A DNA stretch of 40,901 nucleotides from a virus. Its lineage: Duplodnaviria; Heunggongvirae; Uroviricota; Caudoviricetes. Of the stretch, positions 3,586 to 35,272 are shown piece after piece. The stretch covers positions 1 to 40,901 of IMG/VR virus record IMGVR_UViG_2563366888_000019; one strand, written 5' to 3'. A model generated the notes under the pieces. The model did not search any database. It was not told the DNA's origin and saw only the letters and a list, made by a program, of their open reading frames with translations. The position numbers and the translations under genes are program-made. Every line of letters begins with the position of its first letter. The first letter of the stretch is position 1.

Positions 3586-5771
3586 GAAACTTCCCCATTG
3601 GTTGAAAATATGGCTCCTCCAACGCCAAGTGTATTTCGTGTTGTGCTCAACCTCAGAGGGCTGGAGTCAGAATTAGAATATCCTGTAGCAGAAATAAAAG
3701 ATCCTCCACTAATAGTCAACTGCGGAACATCGGCTATATCTGAATAAGTTCTGTCAGCAACAGTATTATTTATAGCCACATATGATCCAAAAAAACTTCT
3801 TATTGTTTGGTTTTTAACTTTACTTCCTTCAATGGTTATCCTACTACCACAGTCGGCAATAAATCCTGAATCTGCATCCAGCGTTGCATTCATAAAAGAA
3901 GCTTCAGATCTCTCTACATCAATCCATCTAATATCTTTTGTGGGATTTGCACCAAATACATGACAAATATTAGAGTTAAACCTTACACCATCTTGGAGGT
4001 GCATTAATTTTTTTATATCTGTACCCCATAGCCTTGGAAAATTAACAGATGCTCCTGCATGGCAATCAAATCCCAGCTCAGCCCCTGAGATATCTACAGC
4101 CTTTCCTGAAATAACAGCACCAGTGTCTGCATTAACGGCTGTTCCACAATTGCGCATATCATTACCAGCAACATCAACGCAACCCGCACCATCAATACGC
4201 ACACCAAGTGCACATCCATAAAAACCTTTTTCAATATTTGGTTCAAGGACTTTACCACTTGTTTCTGCATCACTTTCTTCAACGTCATGTCGTCTTGCAT
4301 CAACATATGCTGTATGAATGCAGGTTAATCCACGATATGAGCAATGTATAGTTTTATGGTCGCGTATATTAACATTTGAACCATCTCTTACATTCCATCC
4401 TATATAACAATAGATTGCACTTGACCCCTGAAAATCTGCTTTAACATTATAAATACAATTAACTGACGCAACCGTACTCTCTGTGCACCGTTCAAACTTG
4501 CTTACAGGCATTGATGCCTTGACATTATTTACCAGTTGCAGGGAAGAGTATCTGCTATAAGAAAAATCACATACGTAATATCCTTCTGGCATATATGCAG
4601 CAACACTTTCCTCATCAGGAGCACATCCGGTATGATATGCACTAATTTTTGCACCAAAACTACCATGAATTCCAACGTAGAACTTTCGAGCACCTGAATA
4701 CGGATAGAAATTAAGTTCAGCTTTTTGAGTTACAATAAATGCACAAACATCGCTATCATCTCTATTTTCTTCGATCTGAATAGCAAATACAGGACTTTTT
4801 GCTGCATCGCAAATGTAAAATAAATACTTGTATTCGTAATACGTTCTAACGATTTTAGTAAACAAACGAGTGTCAGAGAAAACCACTGAGTCTTCTGATG
4901 TTATTTTAATCCAAGACAAATCAACACCTGAACTGAATTCAATTTGATAGTTGATAATATGCCCGGTCTTAATTCTTATTTCGCAGAAAGCATTACCACC
5001 ATCCCACATAGGTCTCATTGACTGGGCTGCAATGATTGCATCTTTGAGTGTAGGGTAATCACCCCATTCGCCAACAGTAATAACAAAAGTATAATATGAG
5101 TTAAAAACAGCGGCATTTTTGCCTTTGGATATCAACTCCTTAATCATAAAAATATTATCTTCGTAATCACAAGGAGAAATTATATCCCTCATTTTGCTTT
5201 GAAATGTTCGTTGTCTTGCCCCGCTTCCTGACGGTATAAACCAACCAAAACCACCAACAACCCCGGCGATTGCAGCATCGACATAATTACGCATTGAGCG
5301 ATTATTTACAGCGTCCTGCTCAAATGATGGATCTGCAAGGTTAGAAATTTTGTTTTGCTTTGCATCGTAATATTTTGCAAGCAAAGATGGTTTCATCAAT
5401 GCACGTCTGAACCACCCAAAACATCGCTGGATCAGCATCGTCAGGTAGTCAAATGCATCTTCATGAACTTCGGGGAAAAATTTTCCCTGATTGCGAAGAT
5501 CAGTCTCCTGCACCACATCAAGCACACGCTCTATCGTAATTCGCCAGCCAGCAGCAAGCGGCGACGGGAGAACCACTTCACCGCCACTATAAGTGCCCGC
5601 TCCAGTTACCTTATAACCGGTATCCAGAACCAATTCTGTTACGTTCCCGTTCAGGTCAGACACCTGAACAACCAGGTCTGATTTTTTGAAAATACGGAAG
5701 GTATACGGAAACGATGTCGTAACGCCGTTACCGGTGTATTCGTTGTGGTCAACTTCGGTTGAGACCGTCAT
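3582..5771 (-). CDS. tailspike / tail fibre with T7-type N-terminal adaptor and beta-helix-like C-terminal domain (729 aa)
   Basis: N-terminal ~120 aa resemble the conserved podovirus tail-fibre adaptor domain; C-terminal part AT-rich, Gly/Asn/Ser/Cys-rich. Confidence 0.8.
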   Translation of the reverse strand: MTVSTEVDHNEYTGNGVTTSFPYTFRIFKKSDLVVQVSDLNGNVTELVLDTGYKVTGAGTYSGGEVVLPSPLAAGWRITIERVLDVVQETDLRNQGKFFPEVHEDAFDYLTMLIQRCFGWFRRALMKPSLLAKYYDAKQNKISNLADPSFEQDAVNNRSMRNYVDAAIAGVVGGFGWFIPSGSGARQRTFQSKMRDIISPCDYEDNIFMIKELISKGKNAAVFNSYYTFVITVGEWGDYPTLKDAIIAAQSMRPMWDGGNAFCEIRIKTGHIINYQIEFSSGVDLSWIKITSEDSVVFSDTRLFTKIVRTYYEYKYLFYICDAAKSPVFAIQIEENRDDSDVCAFIVTQKAELNFYPYSGARKFYVGIHGSFGAKISAYHTGCAPDEESVAAYMPEGYYVCDFSYSRYSSLQLVNNVKASMPVSKFERCTESTVASVNCIYNVKADFQGSSAIYCYIGWNVRDGSNVNIRDHKTIHCSYRGLTCIHTAYVDARRHDVEESDAETSGKVLEPNIEKGFYGCALGVRIDGAGCVDVAGNDMRNCGTAVNADTGAVISGKAVDISGAELGFDCHAGASVNFPRLWGTDIKKLMHLQDGVRFNSNICHVFGANPTKDIRWIDVERSEASFMNATLDADSGFIADCGSRITIEGSKVKNQTIRSFFGSYVAINNTVADRTYSDIADVPQLTISGGSFISATGYSNSDSSPLRLSTTRNTLGVGGAIFSTNGEVS

Positions 5772-6247: not shown

Positions 6248-6754
6248 TTAACAGTCGTAAAATTCTGGGTCCCACAAACTTGCATCGCGCGGCATGGATT
6301 CTAACTTTTTCAGCCGCAAAATTCTGTCACACTCGACAACTAATTTTTGCTTCTGCTCGTCAATTTCTACTGTCTTATGCGCTGGTTCATCCCAATAATC
6401 CAGAAGGAAGGCATGGCGTTCAGATGTGACCAGATAAATCACATACACGTCACTGGTTGGGATCTTTTTATGCTTGTTAGTGGTCTTGTCTTTCTTCCCA
6501 GACGCCCAGTTTTTCCAGCATTGTTCCGTACCGCTCTCACCAAACTTGTCAGTATAGTTTCCGATGTTTAAGTGAACGTGGCGTATGTGATATTCCAGCA
6601 TCTCTTTCGGTGGATCTCGAAACAGAGTGTCCTTTCCGAAATCCTTATGATGACCGTAGCGCCAGTGATCTATGAACGCGTTTTTGATAGGTATTAGCTC
6701 AGGGTCCTTCCCAAAAATTCCAGGGTGAACCAACCCCTGGAATTTATTCGGCAT
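6248..6754 (-). CDS. YafO-toxin-like protein, candidate toxin/abortive-infection effector (168 aa)
   Basis: IFGKD, YHIRHVHL and DEPAHK segments resemble the YafO mRNA interferase family as recalled from memory; overlaps upstream gene by 11 bp. Confidence 0.45.
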   Translation of the reverse strand: MPNKFQGLVHPGIFGKDPELIPIKNAFIDHWRYGHHKDFGKDTLFRDPPKEMLEYHIRHVHLNIGNYTDKFGESGTEQCWKNWASGKKDKTTNKHKKIPTSDVYVIYLVTSERHAFLLDYWDEPAHKTVEIDEQKQKLVVECDRILRLKKLESMPRDASLWDPEFYDC

Positions 6755-7271
6755 CGTCGTAGAGCTCCTGAGCCATGTCTTCAGCAGTGCGTGCAAACAT
6801 CCTGCGCGAGATTGCATGGGATTTCTCTACGGACATCTTTGGGACCTCATGCATAACAAGTTGATGAGTTTTCTCATCAACTTGAAGTGGCTTGTATAAA
6901 CGTTGCCACCTTTCGTTAATTTTATCCTTAAAGCCAGCGAAACCACTTTCCTGACTCTTGTATCCAAAATGAGATAAAGCCAAATTCCTTTCCATTTCAT
7001 TCCTAATGTACTCAGCAAGGTTGCAGTGGAATACTTCCCCTTGTTTTTTTAGGCATGCTTCATGGTCTGTAACACTGTGACGGCTCTCATATAAGTAAAT
7101 GCGATAGGAATTTTTATTATCCTCTTCTTCATAATTTCTAATCGCATCAGCAGTTGCCATAGCTGCAGCATAAGCGGCTGCTTCAATCACCATCTCTTGC
7201 TCTTTTTCTTTTTCAGGCCTTTTCAAGGCAAAGCGTCTATGCCTCATCGCTGTAACTCTCTTCGTGTTCAT
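6744..7271 (-). CDS. hypothetical protein, upstream partner of YafO-like gene (175 aa)
   Basis: AT-rich ORF, ATG at 7271 preceded by palindrome site 2; no recognisable motif. Confidence 0.5.
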   Translation of the reverse strand: MNTKRVTAMRHRRFALKRPEKEKEQEMVIEAAAYAAAMATADAIRNYEEEDNKNSYRIYLYESRHSVTDHEACLKKQGEVFHCNLAEYIRNEMERNLALSHFGYKSQESGFAGFKDKINERWQRLYKPLQVDEKTHQLVMHEVPKMSVEKSHAISRRMFARTAEDMAQELYDDAE

Positions 7272-7282
7272 GGGCACCCCCA

Positions 7283-7299
7283 ACTACCTTTAGGGTAAA
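7283..7299. promoter_or_regulatory. operator-like palindrome ACTACCTTTAGGGTAAA (site 2, degenerate)
   Basis: 12 bp upstream of ATG of 6744..7271. Confidence 0.45.
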
Positions 7300-7454
7300 C
7301 ATTCTATCGAAAGTATACGCTCACTGGCAAAAAAATAGGCAGGTATTTTCTGAAATGGGATCAATCAAACCACATAGGGTTGAAATGACGTGAGTTATGC
7401 ATTTATCATTACCTTTGCGGTAAATTTACATTGCACTCCTCTTGTGCCATAGTA

Positions 7455-7540
7455 ATCGGGCACTGGCAAAATCCAGTGCCGGGATTGGCGTTCCGGATTA
7501 CTAAAAGGCGCATTCACCGCGCAAGCGGTTTTTTTATGCG
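7455..7540 (+). ncRNA. candidate structured RNA / leader element with terminator
   Basis: 10-bp-stem hairpin CGGGCACTGG-N6-CCAGTGCCGG followed by ACCGC-GCAA-GCGGT plus T7 terminator; no credible ORF. Confidence 0.3.
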
Positions 7541-7692
7541 TATAGCACGGCCACATTCGTATTATGGTGGGCTGTGTGGGGGCACCGAAAGGTGCGCCGG
7601 GTCCTTTTAGCCGGTTACGCCAACCCTGCACAGTTCACCACCAACCGATTGGCGTCGGTAGTGGTGATTAACCAGACTAAAAGGTAACCACT

Positions 7693-8388
7693 ATGACAGC
7701 TACAAAAAGCACGTCCATTTTTTCTTTCGAATCCCAAGCCGATATACGAGTAATCGTCATAAATGGTGAGCCATGGTTTATCGCTTCAGATGTTTGTCGG
7801 GCTATAGGCATAGCAAACCATCGAGATGCTGTTCGAAAACTTGATGATGATGAGAAGGGCGTCGCTTCAACCGACACCCCTGGCGGTGAGCAAGAATCGA
7901 TCATCATCTCCGAGTCAGGCCTCTACACACTGATCCTCCGCTGCCGCGACGCAGTGACACCAGGCACTATCCCCTACCGCTTTCGTAAATGGGTTACAGG
8001 TGAGGTTCTTCCTCAGATCCGCCGCACCGGAAGTTACATTAAAAACTCGCTCCCGCAGGAAGAACGCATAAAGATGGTTGCCGACCAGGTAGCCAACGCC
8101 ACAGCATCAGCAGTGATGCAGGCAATGAAGATAGAGAACAAAACCTACAGCGCCCCACTGAAGCCCGGCTACCGCAGTTTGATTCACTCGCCGTCTGGTG
8201 TTCTCGGCCTGACGGAGAACTCACTGCTGATGAATCTGCTGAACCAGTTACAGGAAGACGGGCACGACGTATCGGGCGCGGCGGCGGAGCTGACCACCAT
8301 GTTCTGCTACATCGTCGGTGTGAGTAAATGCCTGCGTGATATCCAGACCCACGCGGAATACATCAACGACAAAGCAGGGTTCTTCTGA
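7693..8388 (+). CDS. Bro-N domain antirepressor-type protein (231 aa)
   Basis: N-terminal region matches BRO-N pattern; C-terminal domain paralogous to 5967..6224; AAAAGG SD. Confidence 0.7.
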   Translation: MTATKSTSIFSFESQADIRVIVINGEPWFIASDVCRAIGIANHRDAVRKLDDDEKGVASTDTPGGEQESIIISESGLYTLILRCRDAVTPGTIPYRFRKWVTGEVLPQIRRTGSYIKNSLPQEERIKMVADQVANATASAVMQAMKIENKTYSAPLKPGYRSLIHSPSGVLGLTENSLLMNLLNQLQEDGHDVSGAAAELTTMFCYIVGVSKCLRDIQTHAEYINDKAGFF

Positions 8389-8500: not shown

Positions 8501-8689
8501 ATGGAAATCAACATCATTACATTGCTGAAGGCCATTATTGGCGGAGCGGGCTTAGGCTTTGCCCTACCAGGCGGATTATCTTTCCTGCTTCCTGCTTTTA
8601 CTGTTACAGCTGGGATAGCCTATGCATTTGCTGTGGCTGGTGCTGTTGCACTCCCTGCTATCTATGCCGCAAAGAAGTTAGCCAACTAA
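8501..8689 (+). CDS. small Gly/Ala-rich hydrophobic peptide (62 aa), possible membrane-active peptide or toxin
   Basis: GGGGG SD; N-terminal 15 aa end in GG (double-glycine-leader-like), rest is GxxxG-rich hydrophobic with KKLAN tail. Confidence 0.45.
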   Translation: MEINIITLLKAIIGGAGLGFALPGGLSFLLPAFTVTAGIAYAFAVAGAVALPAIYAAKKLAN

Positions 8690-8690
8690 A

Positions 8691-9023
8691 ATGCCTGATT
8701 TATCTTGGCTTGCGCCCAGAGATGCACAGCAATTGACAAGGTTTTATTTCATACTGTGCATTGCTTATCTTGCTGTTCATCTGATATGGGATGCCGTTTG
8801 CAAAGATACGCCTCCTTTTTCTTTGGATAAGTTGCAATACAAGATGAATGAGGTTTATTCATCATCTACTTTTGCAACCAGCGCATTCTTCATTGTTATT
8901 CTGTTCGATATGAAGAATCCACTGAGAACTTCAGATGCTTTCATATTCCCATTAATTATTGCTGCTCTAACTGGCTTTATGATCTCATTATCAGCAATAG
9001 TGCCAAAGAAAGTAAATAACTGA
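8691..9023 (+). CDS. 3-TM membrane protein (110 aa), possible immunity or partner protein
   Basis: start 2 nt after stop of 8501..8689; three hydrophobic helices; terminator follows. Confidence 0.5.
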   Translation: MPDLSWLAPRDAQQLTRFYFILCIAYLAVHLIWDAVCKDTPPFSLDKLQYKMNEVYSSSTFATSAFFIVILFDMKNPLRTSDAFIFPLIIAALTGFMISLSAIVPKKVNN

Positions 9024-9026
9024 ATA

Positions 9027-9049
9027 AGCCCGCGTTGCGGGCTTTTTTA
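9027..9049 (+). terminator. rho-independent terminator
   Basis: AAGCCCGC-GTTG-GCGGGCTT stem-loop plus T6. Confidence 0.7.
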
Positions 9050-9120
9050 TGGACGAAACAAAAGTCAGTGCTACACTCATTGACGCCACATTGAGGTGGT
9101 TTATAGATGGAAATTTCACA

Positions 9121-9282
9121 ATGAAAAAAGCATTTGCTGCACTGTTCGTTTTGTTGTCTCTGGTAGCTTCAACTCAGGCCTTTGCCGGTCGTTGTCAGCA
9201 CGACAGCGACACTGCTGCTGACGGCTCCCGCTGCGGTGGGCGTTCTGCGGATTCCCGCCCAGGCGGCGGTGGCATTCGTTAA
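9121..9282 (+). CDS. small secreted Gly/Arg-rich peptide precursor (53 aa)
   Basis: Sec-type signal peptide ending AFA; mature ~31 aa with 2 Cys; TTGACG-N16-TATAGA promoter-like upstream; weak SD. Confidence 0.35.
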   Translation: MKKAFAALFVLLSLVASTQAFAGRCQHDSDTAADGSRCGGRSADSRPGGGGIR

Positions 9283-9288
9283 AAACAA

Positions 9289-9304
9289 GGCCGCGAAAGC
9301 GGCC
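9289..9304. terminator. hairpin GGCCGCGAAAGCGGCC (copy 2 of 2)
   Basis: identical to 6231..6246; between convergent 9121..9282 and 9319..9768. Confidence 0.55.
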
Positions 9305-9318
9305 TGTGACATGTCACG

Positions 9319-9768
9319 CTACTTGCGAAATCTTTCTTTACCCTTCCAGCCAGTAGATGTTAGTTCAGGATGAATGGTTCCCAATATAAAGCCAACCATA
9401 GCGGAGCGAGGATCTTCTATTTTATCCGTTAATTCTTCGGCATAACTCACAGGCAACCAAGCAACAAGATCACCAATCCTCAGCTTTGGTCCTTTGCTGT
9501 AAGATGAATCGGCAATAACAAAAAATCCACCATCAGCTGAGCACACCTTCAGCATTGCCCTTTGTCTTCCAGAATCTAGCAAAACTGGCTGTTCCCCACT
9601 TGGACCAGGTATGATGATGGCTGGCATTGGTTTATTGGCTGAAAGGCTTGTGTCAAGATACTTACACGCATACTCAAAAGCTGAAAAGTTATCCTTAAAG
9701 ATAAGAGGTTGAATTTTATTGCTAACCTCCTTACCACCGATTAATCTGTTGATCATCTTCTTGAACAT
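9319..9768 (-). CDS. hypothetical protein (149 aa)
   Basis: AGGTGA SD before ATG 9768; no recognisable motif; part of cargo island. Confidence 0.5.
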   Translation of the reverse strand: MFKKMINRLIGGKEVSNKIQPLIFKDNFSAFEYACKYLDTSLSANKPMPAIIIPGPSGEQPVLLDSGRQRAMLKVCSADGGFFVIADSSYSKGPKLRIGDLVAWLPVSYAEELTDKIEDPRSAMVGFILGTIHPELTSTGWKGKERFRK

Positions 9769-25609: not shown

Positions 25610-25638
25610 TTGACATTTAACGCACAAATTATTACCTT
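25610..25638 (+). promoter_or_regulatory. candidate promoter (-35 TTGACA) facing the tRNA
   Basis: TTGACA at 25610-25615; poor -10 (TACCTT) overlapping palindrome site 4. Confidence 0.3.
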
Positions 25639-25968: not shown

Positions 25969-26045
25969 GTGGCATTAGCTCAGTTGGACAGAGCAACCGC
26001 CTTCTAAGCGGTTGGTCGCAGGTTCGAATCCTGCATGCCACGCCA
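25969..26045 (+). tRNA. tRNA-Arg (anticodon UCU)
   Basis: 77 nt; acceptor stem GTGGCAT/ATGCCAC, T-loop GGTTCGAATCC, anticodon loop CTTCTAA, discriminator G and encoded CCA; close to host argU-type tRNA as recalled. Confidence 0.85.
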
Positions 26046-34302: not shown

Positions 34303-34533
34303 TCATGAGTAGAAGAAGTATGCCAGTTCTGCTTTTGAGCGCAGCCATTGTCTTGTTTTACAGGCTTTAAAAAGCCCATTCATCAATACCTTACCTGGCA
34401 TTTTGCGCTTACCTGTTAAGTGAGTCTGGATATAGTGACTCGTCGTTCCGGCTTCCTGTGCGAAGGCTTCACGCTCATCCGGAGTAAGTGCAAGCCAGTG
34501 CTTTTTGAAATCGAAATGTCCGTTATCGCTCAT
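34303..34533 (-). CDS. Cro-like HTH regulator (76 aa)
   Basis: first gene of minus-strand early operon, divergent from repressor; HTH-like EAFAQEAGTTSHYIQTHL. Confidence 0.5.
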   Translation of the reverse strand: MSDNGHFDFKKHWLALTPDEREAFAQEAGTTSHYIQTHLTGKRKMPGKVLMNGLFKACKTRQWLRSKAELAYFFYS

Positions 34534-34687: not shown

Positions 34688-35272
34688 ATGAAAAGTATCC
34701 AGGACGTCCGCAGGCAAAATCTCAACGACTTGATCGACCGTGAATTCAATGGTGTTCAGACGCGGATGGCTGAAAAACTTGGAACTCAGGCAAATCTGGT
34801 AAACCGCTGGGCTCTTGGCAAGAAGGTTATCGGCGACCAGGTTGCGCGAAAAATTGAAGCTGCCGCCAATAAACCCCGTAACTGGCTTGATATCGATCGC
34901 TCGCTTTCTCAGGAAGGTTTTCAGCCTGTCGGACCAAGCGACATTGGTCAACTGGCGGCTCACAACCTGGAACGCTGGATGAGCGAAAGCCGCGACCTTT
35001 CAACGCAGGGAAAACTTCACCGCGCATCCGGCGTCGCCCAGGTGACAATCAGCCGCCTGTTAAACAATGAGGTCAGCGTTTCCATTTCCACCCTGGAGAA
35101 TGTTGCATCCGCATTCGGGCGTCACGGCTATGAATTACTGATTCACCCGCACGACCCTGCGACTATCAACTATGACCGCTCGCGCTACGCTTTGTTACCC
35201 GAAACCGAGAAAGCAAAGATCGAAAGTTACATTGAATTTGTCATCAACCAGAACGAAAAAAACAAACAATAA
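34688..35272 (+). CDS. prophage repressor candidate, tandem HTH, no S24 peptidase domain (194 aa)
   Basis: two HTH-like segments (QTRMAEKLGTQANLVNRWALG and ASGVAQVTISRLLNNEVSVS); no Ser-Lys autocleavage motifs; divergent from Cro-like; weak SD; terminator follows. Confidence 0.55.
   Translation: MKSIQDVRRQNLNDLIDREFNGVQTRMAEKLGTQANLVNRWALGKKVIGDQVARKIEAAANKPRNWLDIDRSLSQEGFQPVGPSDIGQLAAHNLERWMSESRDLSTQGKLHRASGVAQVTISRLLNNEVSVSISTLENVASAFGRHGYELLIHPHDPATINYDRSRYALLPETEKAKIESYIEFVINQNEKNKQ

Follow-up and report, generated by a model that had tools for sequence, protein, structure and literature searches.

A C4/IsrK-like RNA module of the immI type predicted to control a Bro-N antirepressor gene in a phiV10/epsilon15-like prophage of E. 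coli

The DNA analysed here, called the window throughout, comprises all 40,901 nucleotides of IMG/VR virus record IMGVR_UViG_2563366888_000019, and represents an E. coli prophage of the phiV10/epsilon15-like, integrated podovirus type. We examined the interval 7300-7692, for which an initial annotation made from the letters alone had proposed a structured non-coding region serving as small RNA or leader of the neighbouring gene. The RNA interval is flanked by a leftward operon on one side and by the rightward Bro-N gene on the other (Table 1). The Bro-N gene product is clearly assignable to an antirepressor family from its matches to Pfam Bro-N (76.7 bits) and to PHROG 130, 'anti-repressor Ant' (E = 3.7e-63); its presumed target would be the cI-like protein encoded at 34688-35272. 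The 600 bp around the RNA module are identical to a segment of the E. coli Nord58 chromosome, and matches similar to this 600-bp stretch were obtained in 941 of 5,426 complete E. coli genomes. From 7403 rightwards the window has 97-99% identity to phages phiV10, TL-2011b and ZX5 (Uetakevirus, epsilon15-like), whose records carry a terminator feature and a 'putative anti-immunity protein' but no RNA gene; in the RefSeq record of the identical E. coli segment nothing is annotated between the two coding genes.

YafO-family toxin genes (RefSeq) lie on both sides of the antirepressor module, each with an overlapping partner ORF. The second YafO-family CDS is situated on the + strand about 930 bp downstream of the Bro-N gene (4313-5138 in locus L002, equivalent to about 8512-9337 of the window), and the leftward pair has a promoter-like site of its own (7330-7301) followed by an operator-like palindrome (7284-7298). 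The sole match of the 179-aa partner of the leftward YafO-family gene was to PHROG 9503, to which no function is assigned.

Table 1. Coordinates of features at the antirepressor locus, and of operator-like sites over the whole window (window numbering).
Feature	Position	Strand	Basis
Leftward operon	ORF 6744-7283, with YafO-family toxin gene (507-nt CDS within ORF 6248-6817)	-	RefSeq (YafO-family gene)
Upstream sigma-70-like promoter, TTGAAA-18 nt-TATCAT	7380..7409	+	Promoter scan, 10/12 matches
Palindrome TTACCTTTGCGGTAA, candidate operator	7409..7423	.	TTACC-N5-GGTAA pattern
Predicted IsrK/C4/ant promoter, TTTACA-17 nt-CATAGT, TG upstream of -10	7425..7453	+	Promoter scan
IsrK-like small RNA	7460..7536	+	Rfam RF01394, fold, terminator scan, complementarity
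IsrK-like RNA hairpin 1	7460-7479	+	Predicted fold
IsrK-like RNA hairpin 2, b1 in and around loop	7480-7495	+	Predicted fold
b1, TTGGCGT	7485-7491	+	In IsrK-like RNA; exact complement of b'
a1, CTAAAAGG	7501-7508	+	In IsrK-like RNA, single-stranded; exact complement of a'
Intrinsic terminator of IsrK-like RNA	7516-7529, T run to 7536	+	Terminator scan
C4-type antisense RNA	7560..7645	+	Rfam RF01695, fold, compensatory changes, opening energies
35-codon ORF through C4	7564..7671	+	ORF list
a', CCUUUUAG	7603-7610	+	C4 hairpin 2 loop
b', ACGCCAA	7617-7623	+	Single-stranded junction of C4
b2, TTGGCGT	7649-7655	+	In leader, loop of small hairpin CCGA/UCGG (7645-7659); exact complement of b' (7617-7623)
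a2, CTAAAAGG	7677-7684	+	In leader; exact complement of a' (7603-7610)
Predicted regulated gene, Bro-N domain antirepressor, 231 aa	7693..8388	+	Pfam Bro-N and PHROG 130
TTACC-N5-GGTAA sites, 15 bp each	5876, 7284, 7409, 8460, 25632, 28774, 28792, 32225, 32287, 34233, 34570, 34618, 35330, 35392		

The whole window was scanned against Rfam, and three matches exceeded their gathering scores: a tRNA-Arg (25969-26042), isrK and C4. The isrK match (RF01394; 7460-7535, + strand) was full length (model positions 1-77) and scored 72.3 bits against a gathering score of 50, with E about 1e-13; the segment thus combines a covariance-model score above the curated cut-off with two 5' hairpins and an intrinsic terminator. 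A more permissive Rfam scan also returned c4-a1b1 (RF03163) at 7447-7499, where its 39 bits fell below the gathering score of 46.7. By itself the fold of the IsrK segment was unexceptional (z = -1.36 compared with shuffles).

All three hairpins proposed in the initial annotation were found where it had placed them. They belong, however, to two separate RNAs of known families: the first hairpin and the terminator are parts of the IsrK-like RNA, and the third hairpin (7582-7595; 5 bp, with a GNRA-type loop) is hairpin 1 of C4. The first had been described as a 10-bp stem, CGGGCACTGG-N6-CCAGTGCCGG (7457-7482); it is present but imperfect, with nine of the ten pairs formed as eight contiguous Watson-Crick pairs (GGCACTGG/CCAGTGCC, 7459-7466/7473-7480), a G-G mismatch and one more pair. 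In both the Rfam isrK match and the predicted fold the stem of IsrK hairpin 1 is the 7-bp GCACUGG/CCAGUGC, starting at match position 1 (7460). The terminator ACCGC-GCAA-GCGGT with its seven T residues was recovered by the terminator scan at 7516-7536. The description of the whole interval as structured holds for 7460-7692 but not for its left part, where 7300-7440 folds no better than shuffles (z = +0.51); the first 160 bp (7300-7459) contain promoter-like and operator-like DNA sites, not RNA structure.

Two direct repeats with a shared spacing of 139 nt were seen in this part of the window, i.e., 7312-7332 with 7451-7471 (81% identity) and 7395-7408 with 7534-7547 (79% identity), the upstream copies resembling the beginning of IsrK and the bases that immediately follow the IsrK terminator. 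The near-identity to phiV10 starts at 7403. These repeats may represent the relic of a second, degraded module, or they may result from recombination at the module boundary.

The C4 match (RF01695) was likewise full length (model positions 1-87), scoring 77.7 bits against a gathering score of 45 (E = 1.1e-13). The RNA folds into a long closing stem, hairpin 1 (GCACC-GAAA-GGUGC) and hairpin 2, which carries a' in its loop. Folding and covariance analysis among homologues, the check suggested in the initial annotation, came out in favour of this structure: for C4 folded alone the MFE structure was the Rfam consensus (-45.1 kcal/mol; z = -3.93), with 0 of 200 shuffles as stable, and the closing stem and both hairpins were backed by compensatory changes in 15 of 21 pairs in an alignment of 37 homologous C4 cores. 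A U before a 5' G, a closing stem and then A-CCA form the classic layout of an RNase P substrate. In the window U7565 precedes G7566 (GG) on the 5' side, and the closing stem is followed by A7640 and CCA (7641-7643), from which the mature C4 is predicted to extend from about 7566 to 7643 (~78 nt). The promoter scan returned no promoter-like site between the IsrK terminator and C4; C4 would come from a read-through precursor. According to published summaries, RNase P cleavage at a GGW motif frees the 77-nt C4 RNA of phage P1 from a longer precursor transcript (PMC5320573), and by analogy we infer that RNase P matures C4 here.

Two further pairings are possible on the 3' side of C4, and both recur in most of the homologous loci. 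One joins the 3' strand of the closing stem of C4 to the sequence GUGGUGA, located further downstream (7635-7641 with 7661-7667), and would compete with C4 folding in unprocessed transcripts. A leader hairpin (7659-7665 with 7687-7693) would place a2 and the Shine-Dalgarno sequence in its loop, with its 3' arm reaching the A of the ATG.

The unpaired segments of C4 have two sets of complements on the same strand, one within the IsrK-like RNA and one within the leader of the Bro-N gene (Table 1). The exact matches of a' to a1 and a2 are 8 nt long and those of b' to b1 and b2 are 7 nt; nine bases in the b2 region (7647-7655) repeat 7483-7491 of the b1 region, and nine in the a2 region (7676-7684) repeat 7500-7508 of the a1 region. 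The a2 segment includes the Shine-Dalgarno sequence AAGG, 8 nt before the ATG of the Bro-N gene (7693). A search of the 40.9 kb for TTGGCG-N5-35-CTAAAAGG gave three sites (IsrK, the leader and, in antisense, C4) where 0.01 were expected from shuffles. The six segments are exposed in the predicted ensembles, with opening energies of 0.0-2.8 kcal/mol (0.6 for a', 0.0 for b'), and the short duplexes contribute -7 to -10 kcal/mol each; the b1:b' pairing can be extended to 10 nt with one mismatch (-17 kcal/mol), compared with the 7-nt match of b2. Opening and short-duplex energies were used since duplexfold disregards internal structure, giving long spurious duplexes for C4 with the leader and with IsrK. 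MFE co-folding of C4 with the leader showed no gain (ddG about 0), a value that is uninformative since the method cannot represent loop-loop contacts. The locus thus has the exposed a' and b' complementary to a2 and b2 over the ribosome-binding site, and a second copy of the target, a1 and b1, upstream on the same transcript.

We assessed covariation of these segments across related phages with a pattern derived from the conserved 3' part of C4, which yielded 120 viral contigs and 82 unique loci with C4 hairpin 2. The a' loop was hypervariable, with 38 distinct sequences among the 82 loci. A complement of at least 7 nt was found for 33 of the 38 a' loops in the a2 window (60-85 nt downstream) and for 25 in the a1 window (105-160 nt upstream), compared with 3.1% and 1.8%, respectively, of 1,406 non-cognate control pairings; in 31 of the 33 specificities a start codon followed a2 within 2-15 nt. 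Locus L012 (IMG/VR contig 3300030311_000004, near 1352) has a C4 otherwise identical to that of the window, with a' changed to CCUUUGUAG; its a2 is changed to match, and its a1 is changed and pairs via one wobble. The locus search held b' as GCCAA, so that covariation of b rests on two further phages: a P1-like phage has GGCCAA with UUGGCC and UUGGUC, and APSE-7 has UGCGAA with UUCGCA twice. The genes downstream of the examined C4 loci encode Bro-N, Bro-N plus P22_AR_C, Rha, ORF6N, ORF6N plus P22_AR_C, or ORFs of 62-81 aa without a Pfam match, several of which, we think, resemble Icd. One RNA scaffold is thus widely reused across 38 a' specificities and varied downstream genes.

Two side observations were made on the relatives. 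In L012 the loop of IsrK hairpin 1 is AUUUUG where the window has CAAAAU; the two are reverse complements, the stem is unchanged, and no pairing partner for this loop was found in C4. At a large group of C4 loci with Rha-type cargo (L005, L008, L016 and relatives) the frame from an AUG at the 5' edge of C4 is open through C4 and in frame with the Rha-family gene, and gene callers may annotate an N-terminally extended Rha-family protein that engulfs the C4 RNA gene.

The start predicted for the 7425-7453 promoter, at about 7460, coincides with position 1 of the Rfam isrK match. The 7409-7423 palindrome lies between this promoter and the upstream one, abutting the -10 of the latter and preceding the -35 of the former, with its centre some 44 nt before the point where IsrK is predicted to begin. 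The pattern TTACC-N5-GGTAA (at most one mismatch) occurs 14 times in the window compared with 0.53 expected. Two copies are located in the 154-bp gap between the divergent cro-like (34303-34533) and cI-like (34688-35272) genes, and several others come immediately after -10-like hexamers, among them the copies preceding the accessory genes that flank the RNA module; a copy is also present in phiV10, at the equivalent position ahead of isrK. Judged from this distribution, the palindromes look like a dispersed operator set serving the prophage repressor, much as C1 operators are scattered in P1. The upstream promoter-like site corresponds in position to the outer promoter of P1 immI, which is under repressor control, and by analogy may have the same function; the palindrome beside it suggests repressor control of this outer promoter, as with Op51 in P1. 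In phiV10 (L001, 2474-2512) the palindrome is part of a much longer perfect inverted repeat, GAGTGCTTATATTTACC GCAAA GGTAAATATAAGCACTC, and the window is without such a repeat.

The P1 comparison was built on reviewing papers together with the sequence of the P1-like phage vB_EcoM-673R5. As summarized in publications, C4 of P1 blocks synthesis of the Ant antirepressor via a' and b', with a' carrying the specificity. In vB_EcoM-673R5 the elements stand in the same order as here: a C1 operator, an isrK-like element with terminator (49.5 bits), C4, b2, and a2 over the icd Shine-Dalgarno sequence. The C4 fold is the same (75.9 bits compared with 77.7 here), the 5' GG and 3' CCA ends in the window fit P1 RNase P processing, and the gene predicted to be regulated likewise belongs to an antirepressor family. 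P1 differs in being a plasmid prophage, whereas the present one is an integrated phiV10/epsilon15-type podovirus; in its antirepressor protein family and operator sequence; and in the a/b specificity, which is CCUUGGAC plus GGCCAA in the P1-like phage and CCUUUUAG plus ACGCCAA here. In P1, moreover, the target is the small icd ORF with ant coupled to it, whereas here the Bro-N antirepressor gene follows directly, with no ORF between C4/a2 and the Bro-N gene in the ORF list; this lack of an icd-like coupled ORF is a caveat on an immI assignment.

Gifsy-1 of Salmonella (isrK - orf45/STnc1160 - anrP) has the same layout of short and long RNA with an antirepressor downstream, as judged by published numbering and not by alignment. 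There IsrK is terminated, and the read-through transcript carries orf45 and the antirepressor gene anrP; IsrK supplied in trans raises anrP translation 139-fold. Hfq binding by IsrK and its trans-activation of the downstream antirepressor are known for Gifsy-1 only. Gifsy-1 also yields STnc1160, a stable processed RNA from the region after IsrK whose production depends on the isrK promoter; we infer that STnc1160 is C4. The compensatory Gifsy-1 mutants G28A/C162U and G31A/C159U define a helix, and when 7460 is taken as +1 the pairs G28-C162 and G31-C159 become G7487-C7621 and G7490-C7618, which are exactly b1:b' pairs. Gifsy-1 differs in having 45 codons in orf45, reported to be translated and coupled to anrP, where the window has 35 codons that are not conserved, and in having isrJ downstream and the AntQ antiterminator as final output.

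The APSE phages of Hamiltonella have isrK, C4 and Bro-N in the same order and annotated so in the public APSE-7 record, and their sequences align with the window over the whole module, although phage genus, host and a/b specificity (CCUGUUUAG plus UGCGAA) differ. The APSE record annotates 'putative a' and b' antisense regions'; by the authors' account these match the sequence preceding the Bro-N gene and also a site in the DNA polymerase gene, the latter without a counterpart here. Phage P4 CI with seqA/seqC is likewise a processed leader RNA pairing with repeated complements up- and downstream, a likeness noted by the Gifsy-1 authors and drawn here by description only. P4 CI acts by premature transcription termination and controls replication genes. 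In P22 immI, RNA-level control of the antirepressor gene is exerted via sar, an RNA read from the strand opposite to the beginning of ant and having no C4 fold; the proteins Mnt and Arc also regulate P22 ant. No sar-type arrangement was seen at the window's locus. The suggestion of antisense or leader RNA control in the initial annotation is supported as to an antisense RNA and refined as to its source: the RNA is not read from the opposite strand but shares the strand of its target, which it precedes, and it would have to work by base-pairing to the leader.

Small-RNA or leader control of the antirepressor gene, as first proposed for the interval, is supported by the two Rfam families, by complementarity to the Bro-N ribosome-binding region and by covariation. 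We consider it highly probable (roughly 0.85) that the locus belongs to the antisense immunity modules of the immI type, known first from P1/P7, and that C4 blocks antirepressor translation in it. Family membership, structure, complementarities and covariation were established on the window and its relatives; transcription, RNase P processing, translational repression and the decoy role are carried over from P1 and Gifsy-1, and repressor binding is likewise a prediction. Transcription would start at about 7460, and most transcripts would end at the intrinsic terminator (7516-7536), giving an IsrK-like RNA of 76-77 nt with b1 and a1. Read-through transcripts would hold C4, to be released by an RNase P cut before G7566 and by 3' trimming that halts at CCA, resulting in a stable RNA of about 78 nt. 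C4 would then pair through a' (loop) and b' (junction) with a2 and b2 in the antirepressor mRNA leader; because a2 spans the Shine-Dalgarno sequence, ribosomes would be kept off and no antirepressor made. The prophage repressor would thereby stay active, and incoming phages of the same a'/b' specificity would be silenced as well. The short IsrK-like RNA, having the same two targets and a longer b1 match, is most likely a decoy that titrates C4 and so turns the antirepressor on; a decoy role is probable by analogy with IsrK over-expression in Gifsy-1. Through the palindrome beside the promoters the prophage repressor probably exerts additional control at the level of transcription.

A more elaborate form of this mechanism is offered tentatively, as somewhat less probable than even odds. 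It is a switch of three RNAs, in which the ratio of termination to read-through would set the level of C4 relative to its own decoy IsrK; the decoy would outbind the mRNA, since b1 matches over 10 nt with one mismatch, compared with 7 nt for b2; the RNase P cut would sever the AUG of the embedded ORF; and the repressor would act via the 14-site operator set, including sites at the nearby accessory genes.

The main rival is a cis-acting leader switch as modelled for Gifsy-1, in which b1 and a1 pair with b' and a' within the same read-through transcript, and IsrK acting in trans remodels that transcript to open the ribosome site, no processed C4 being needed. Alternative structures of the long transcript, and not a processed repressor RNA, are the Gifsy-1 authors' own explanation, and support for two conformers, as well as for trans-activation by IsrK, comes from their native gels, mutants and reporter fusions. 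The same complementary segments exist in the window, with the mutated Gifsy-1 positions mapping exactly onto them, and cis mutations of b1 in Gifsy-1 raised expression and did not lower it, a result that a pure decoy model would not predict. We nevertheless regard the cis switch as unlikely, given that the conservation of a2 and b2, and their covariation with a' in 33/38 specificities, are left unexplained by a model confined to a1 and b1; that P1 reviews describe c4 as a trans-acting RNA repressing Ant synthesis; and that the internal ORF required by the Gifsy-1 model is broken in the closest relative of this phage. Furthermore, the Gifsy-1 b1:b' double mutants remained short of the silent level (224 and 327 units compared with 4), a sign, in our reading and not that of the Gifsy-1 authors, that b' must also pair with b2. 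The cis switch may also operate alongside the trans-acting repressor. Attenuation of transcription in the manner of P4 CI, where C4 would pair with nascent a1/b1 and set the use of the IsrK terminator so that control falls on read-through, was raised by the Gifsy-1 authors, who note the structural likeness to P4 SeqA and CI, and it fits with a1 ending 8 nt before the terminator stem. It is less likely than the cis switch and in our judgement improbable: it leaves unexplained why a2 is on the Shine-Dalgarno sequence, with a start codon 2-15 nt after a2 in 31/33 specificities; the Gifsy-1 translational fusion responds 139-fold compared with 8-fold for the transcriptional fusion; and a constitutive downstream RNA in Gifsy-1 left IsrK toxicity unreduced.

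A coding function for the interval, with the hairpins incidental, was also considered and is also less likely than the cis switch. The ORFs concerned are the 35-aa ORF, a 59-aa ORF (7431-7610) and a 78-aa ORF on the minus strand, and none of the ORFs of the region had a Pfam match. The initial annotation had seen no credible ORF here, which agrees with the Pfam result but overlooks a weak match (E = 2.4e-8) of the 35-aa ORF to PHROG 20442, to which no function is assigned. By published numbering this ORF is positioned about 2 nt off Gifsy-1 orf45, a start-codon mutation of which affects antirepressor expression. On the other side, the substitutions among homologues are compensatory in RNA stems, the 35-codon frame is interrupted in the closest heteroimmune relative, where it ends after 15 codons, and PHROG 20442 may merely gather ORFs called over C4. 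We rejected the small-protein readings, which we hold to be very improbable, on the broken frame in the relative, the lack of a Pfam match and a PHROG without known function. In this subfamily the 35-codon ORF is probably incidental, and cleavage by RNase P at the predicted site (U7565|G7566) would split its AUG.

With C4 as a predicted immI-type antisense repressor, the module is real and of an already well-described kind, differing from P1 mainly by its targeting of a Bro-N gene without an icd-like ORF. It appears to be unannotated so far in this phage group, the RefSeq and phiV10 GenBank records being without these RNAs, and its recognition closes a gap in annotation without disclosing new biology. 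Recognition of the module marks the Bro-N protein as a probable, tightly silenced antirepressor, and the a'/b' sequences predict homo- versus hetero-immunity of phiV10-like and other phages at a second level of immunity. The genetics of Gifsy-1 IsrK can also be linked to the C4 mechanism of P1, because the published compensatory pairs are the b1:b' pairs.

A minor observation concerns the third Rfam match. The tRNA-Arg gene (anticodon TCT) is located inside the prophage at about 25969-26045 on the + strand, and the operator-like palindrome at 25632 lies about 340 bp upstream of it.
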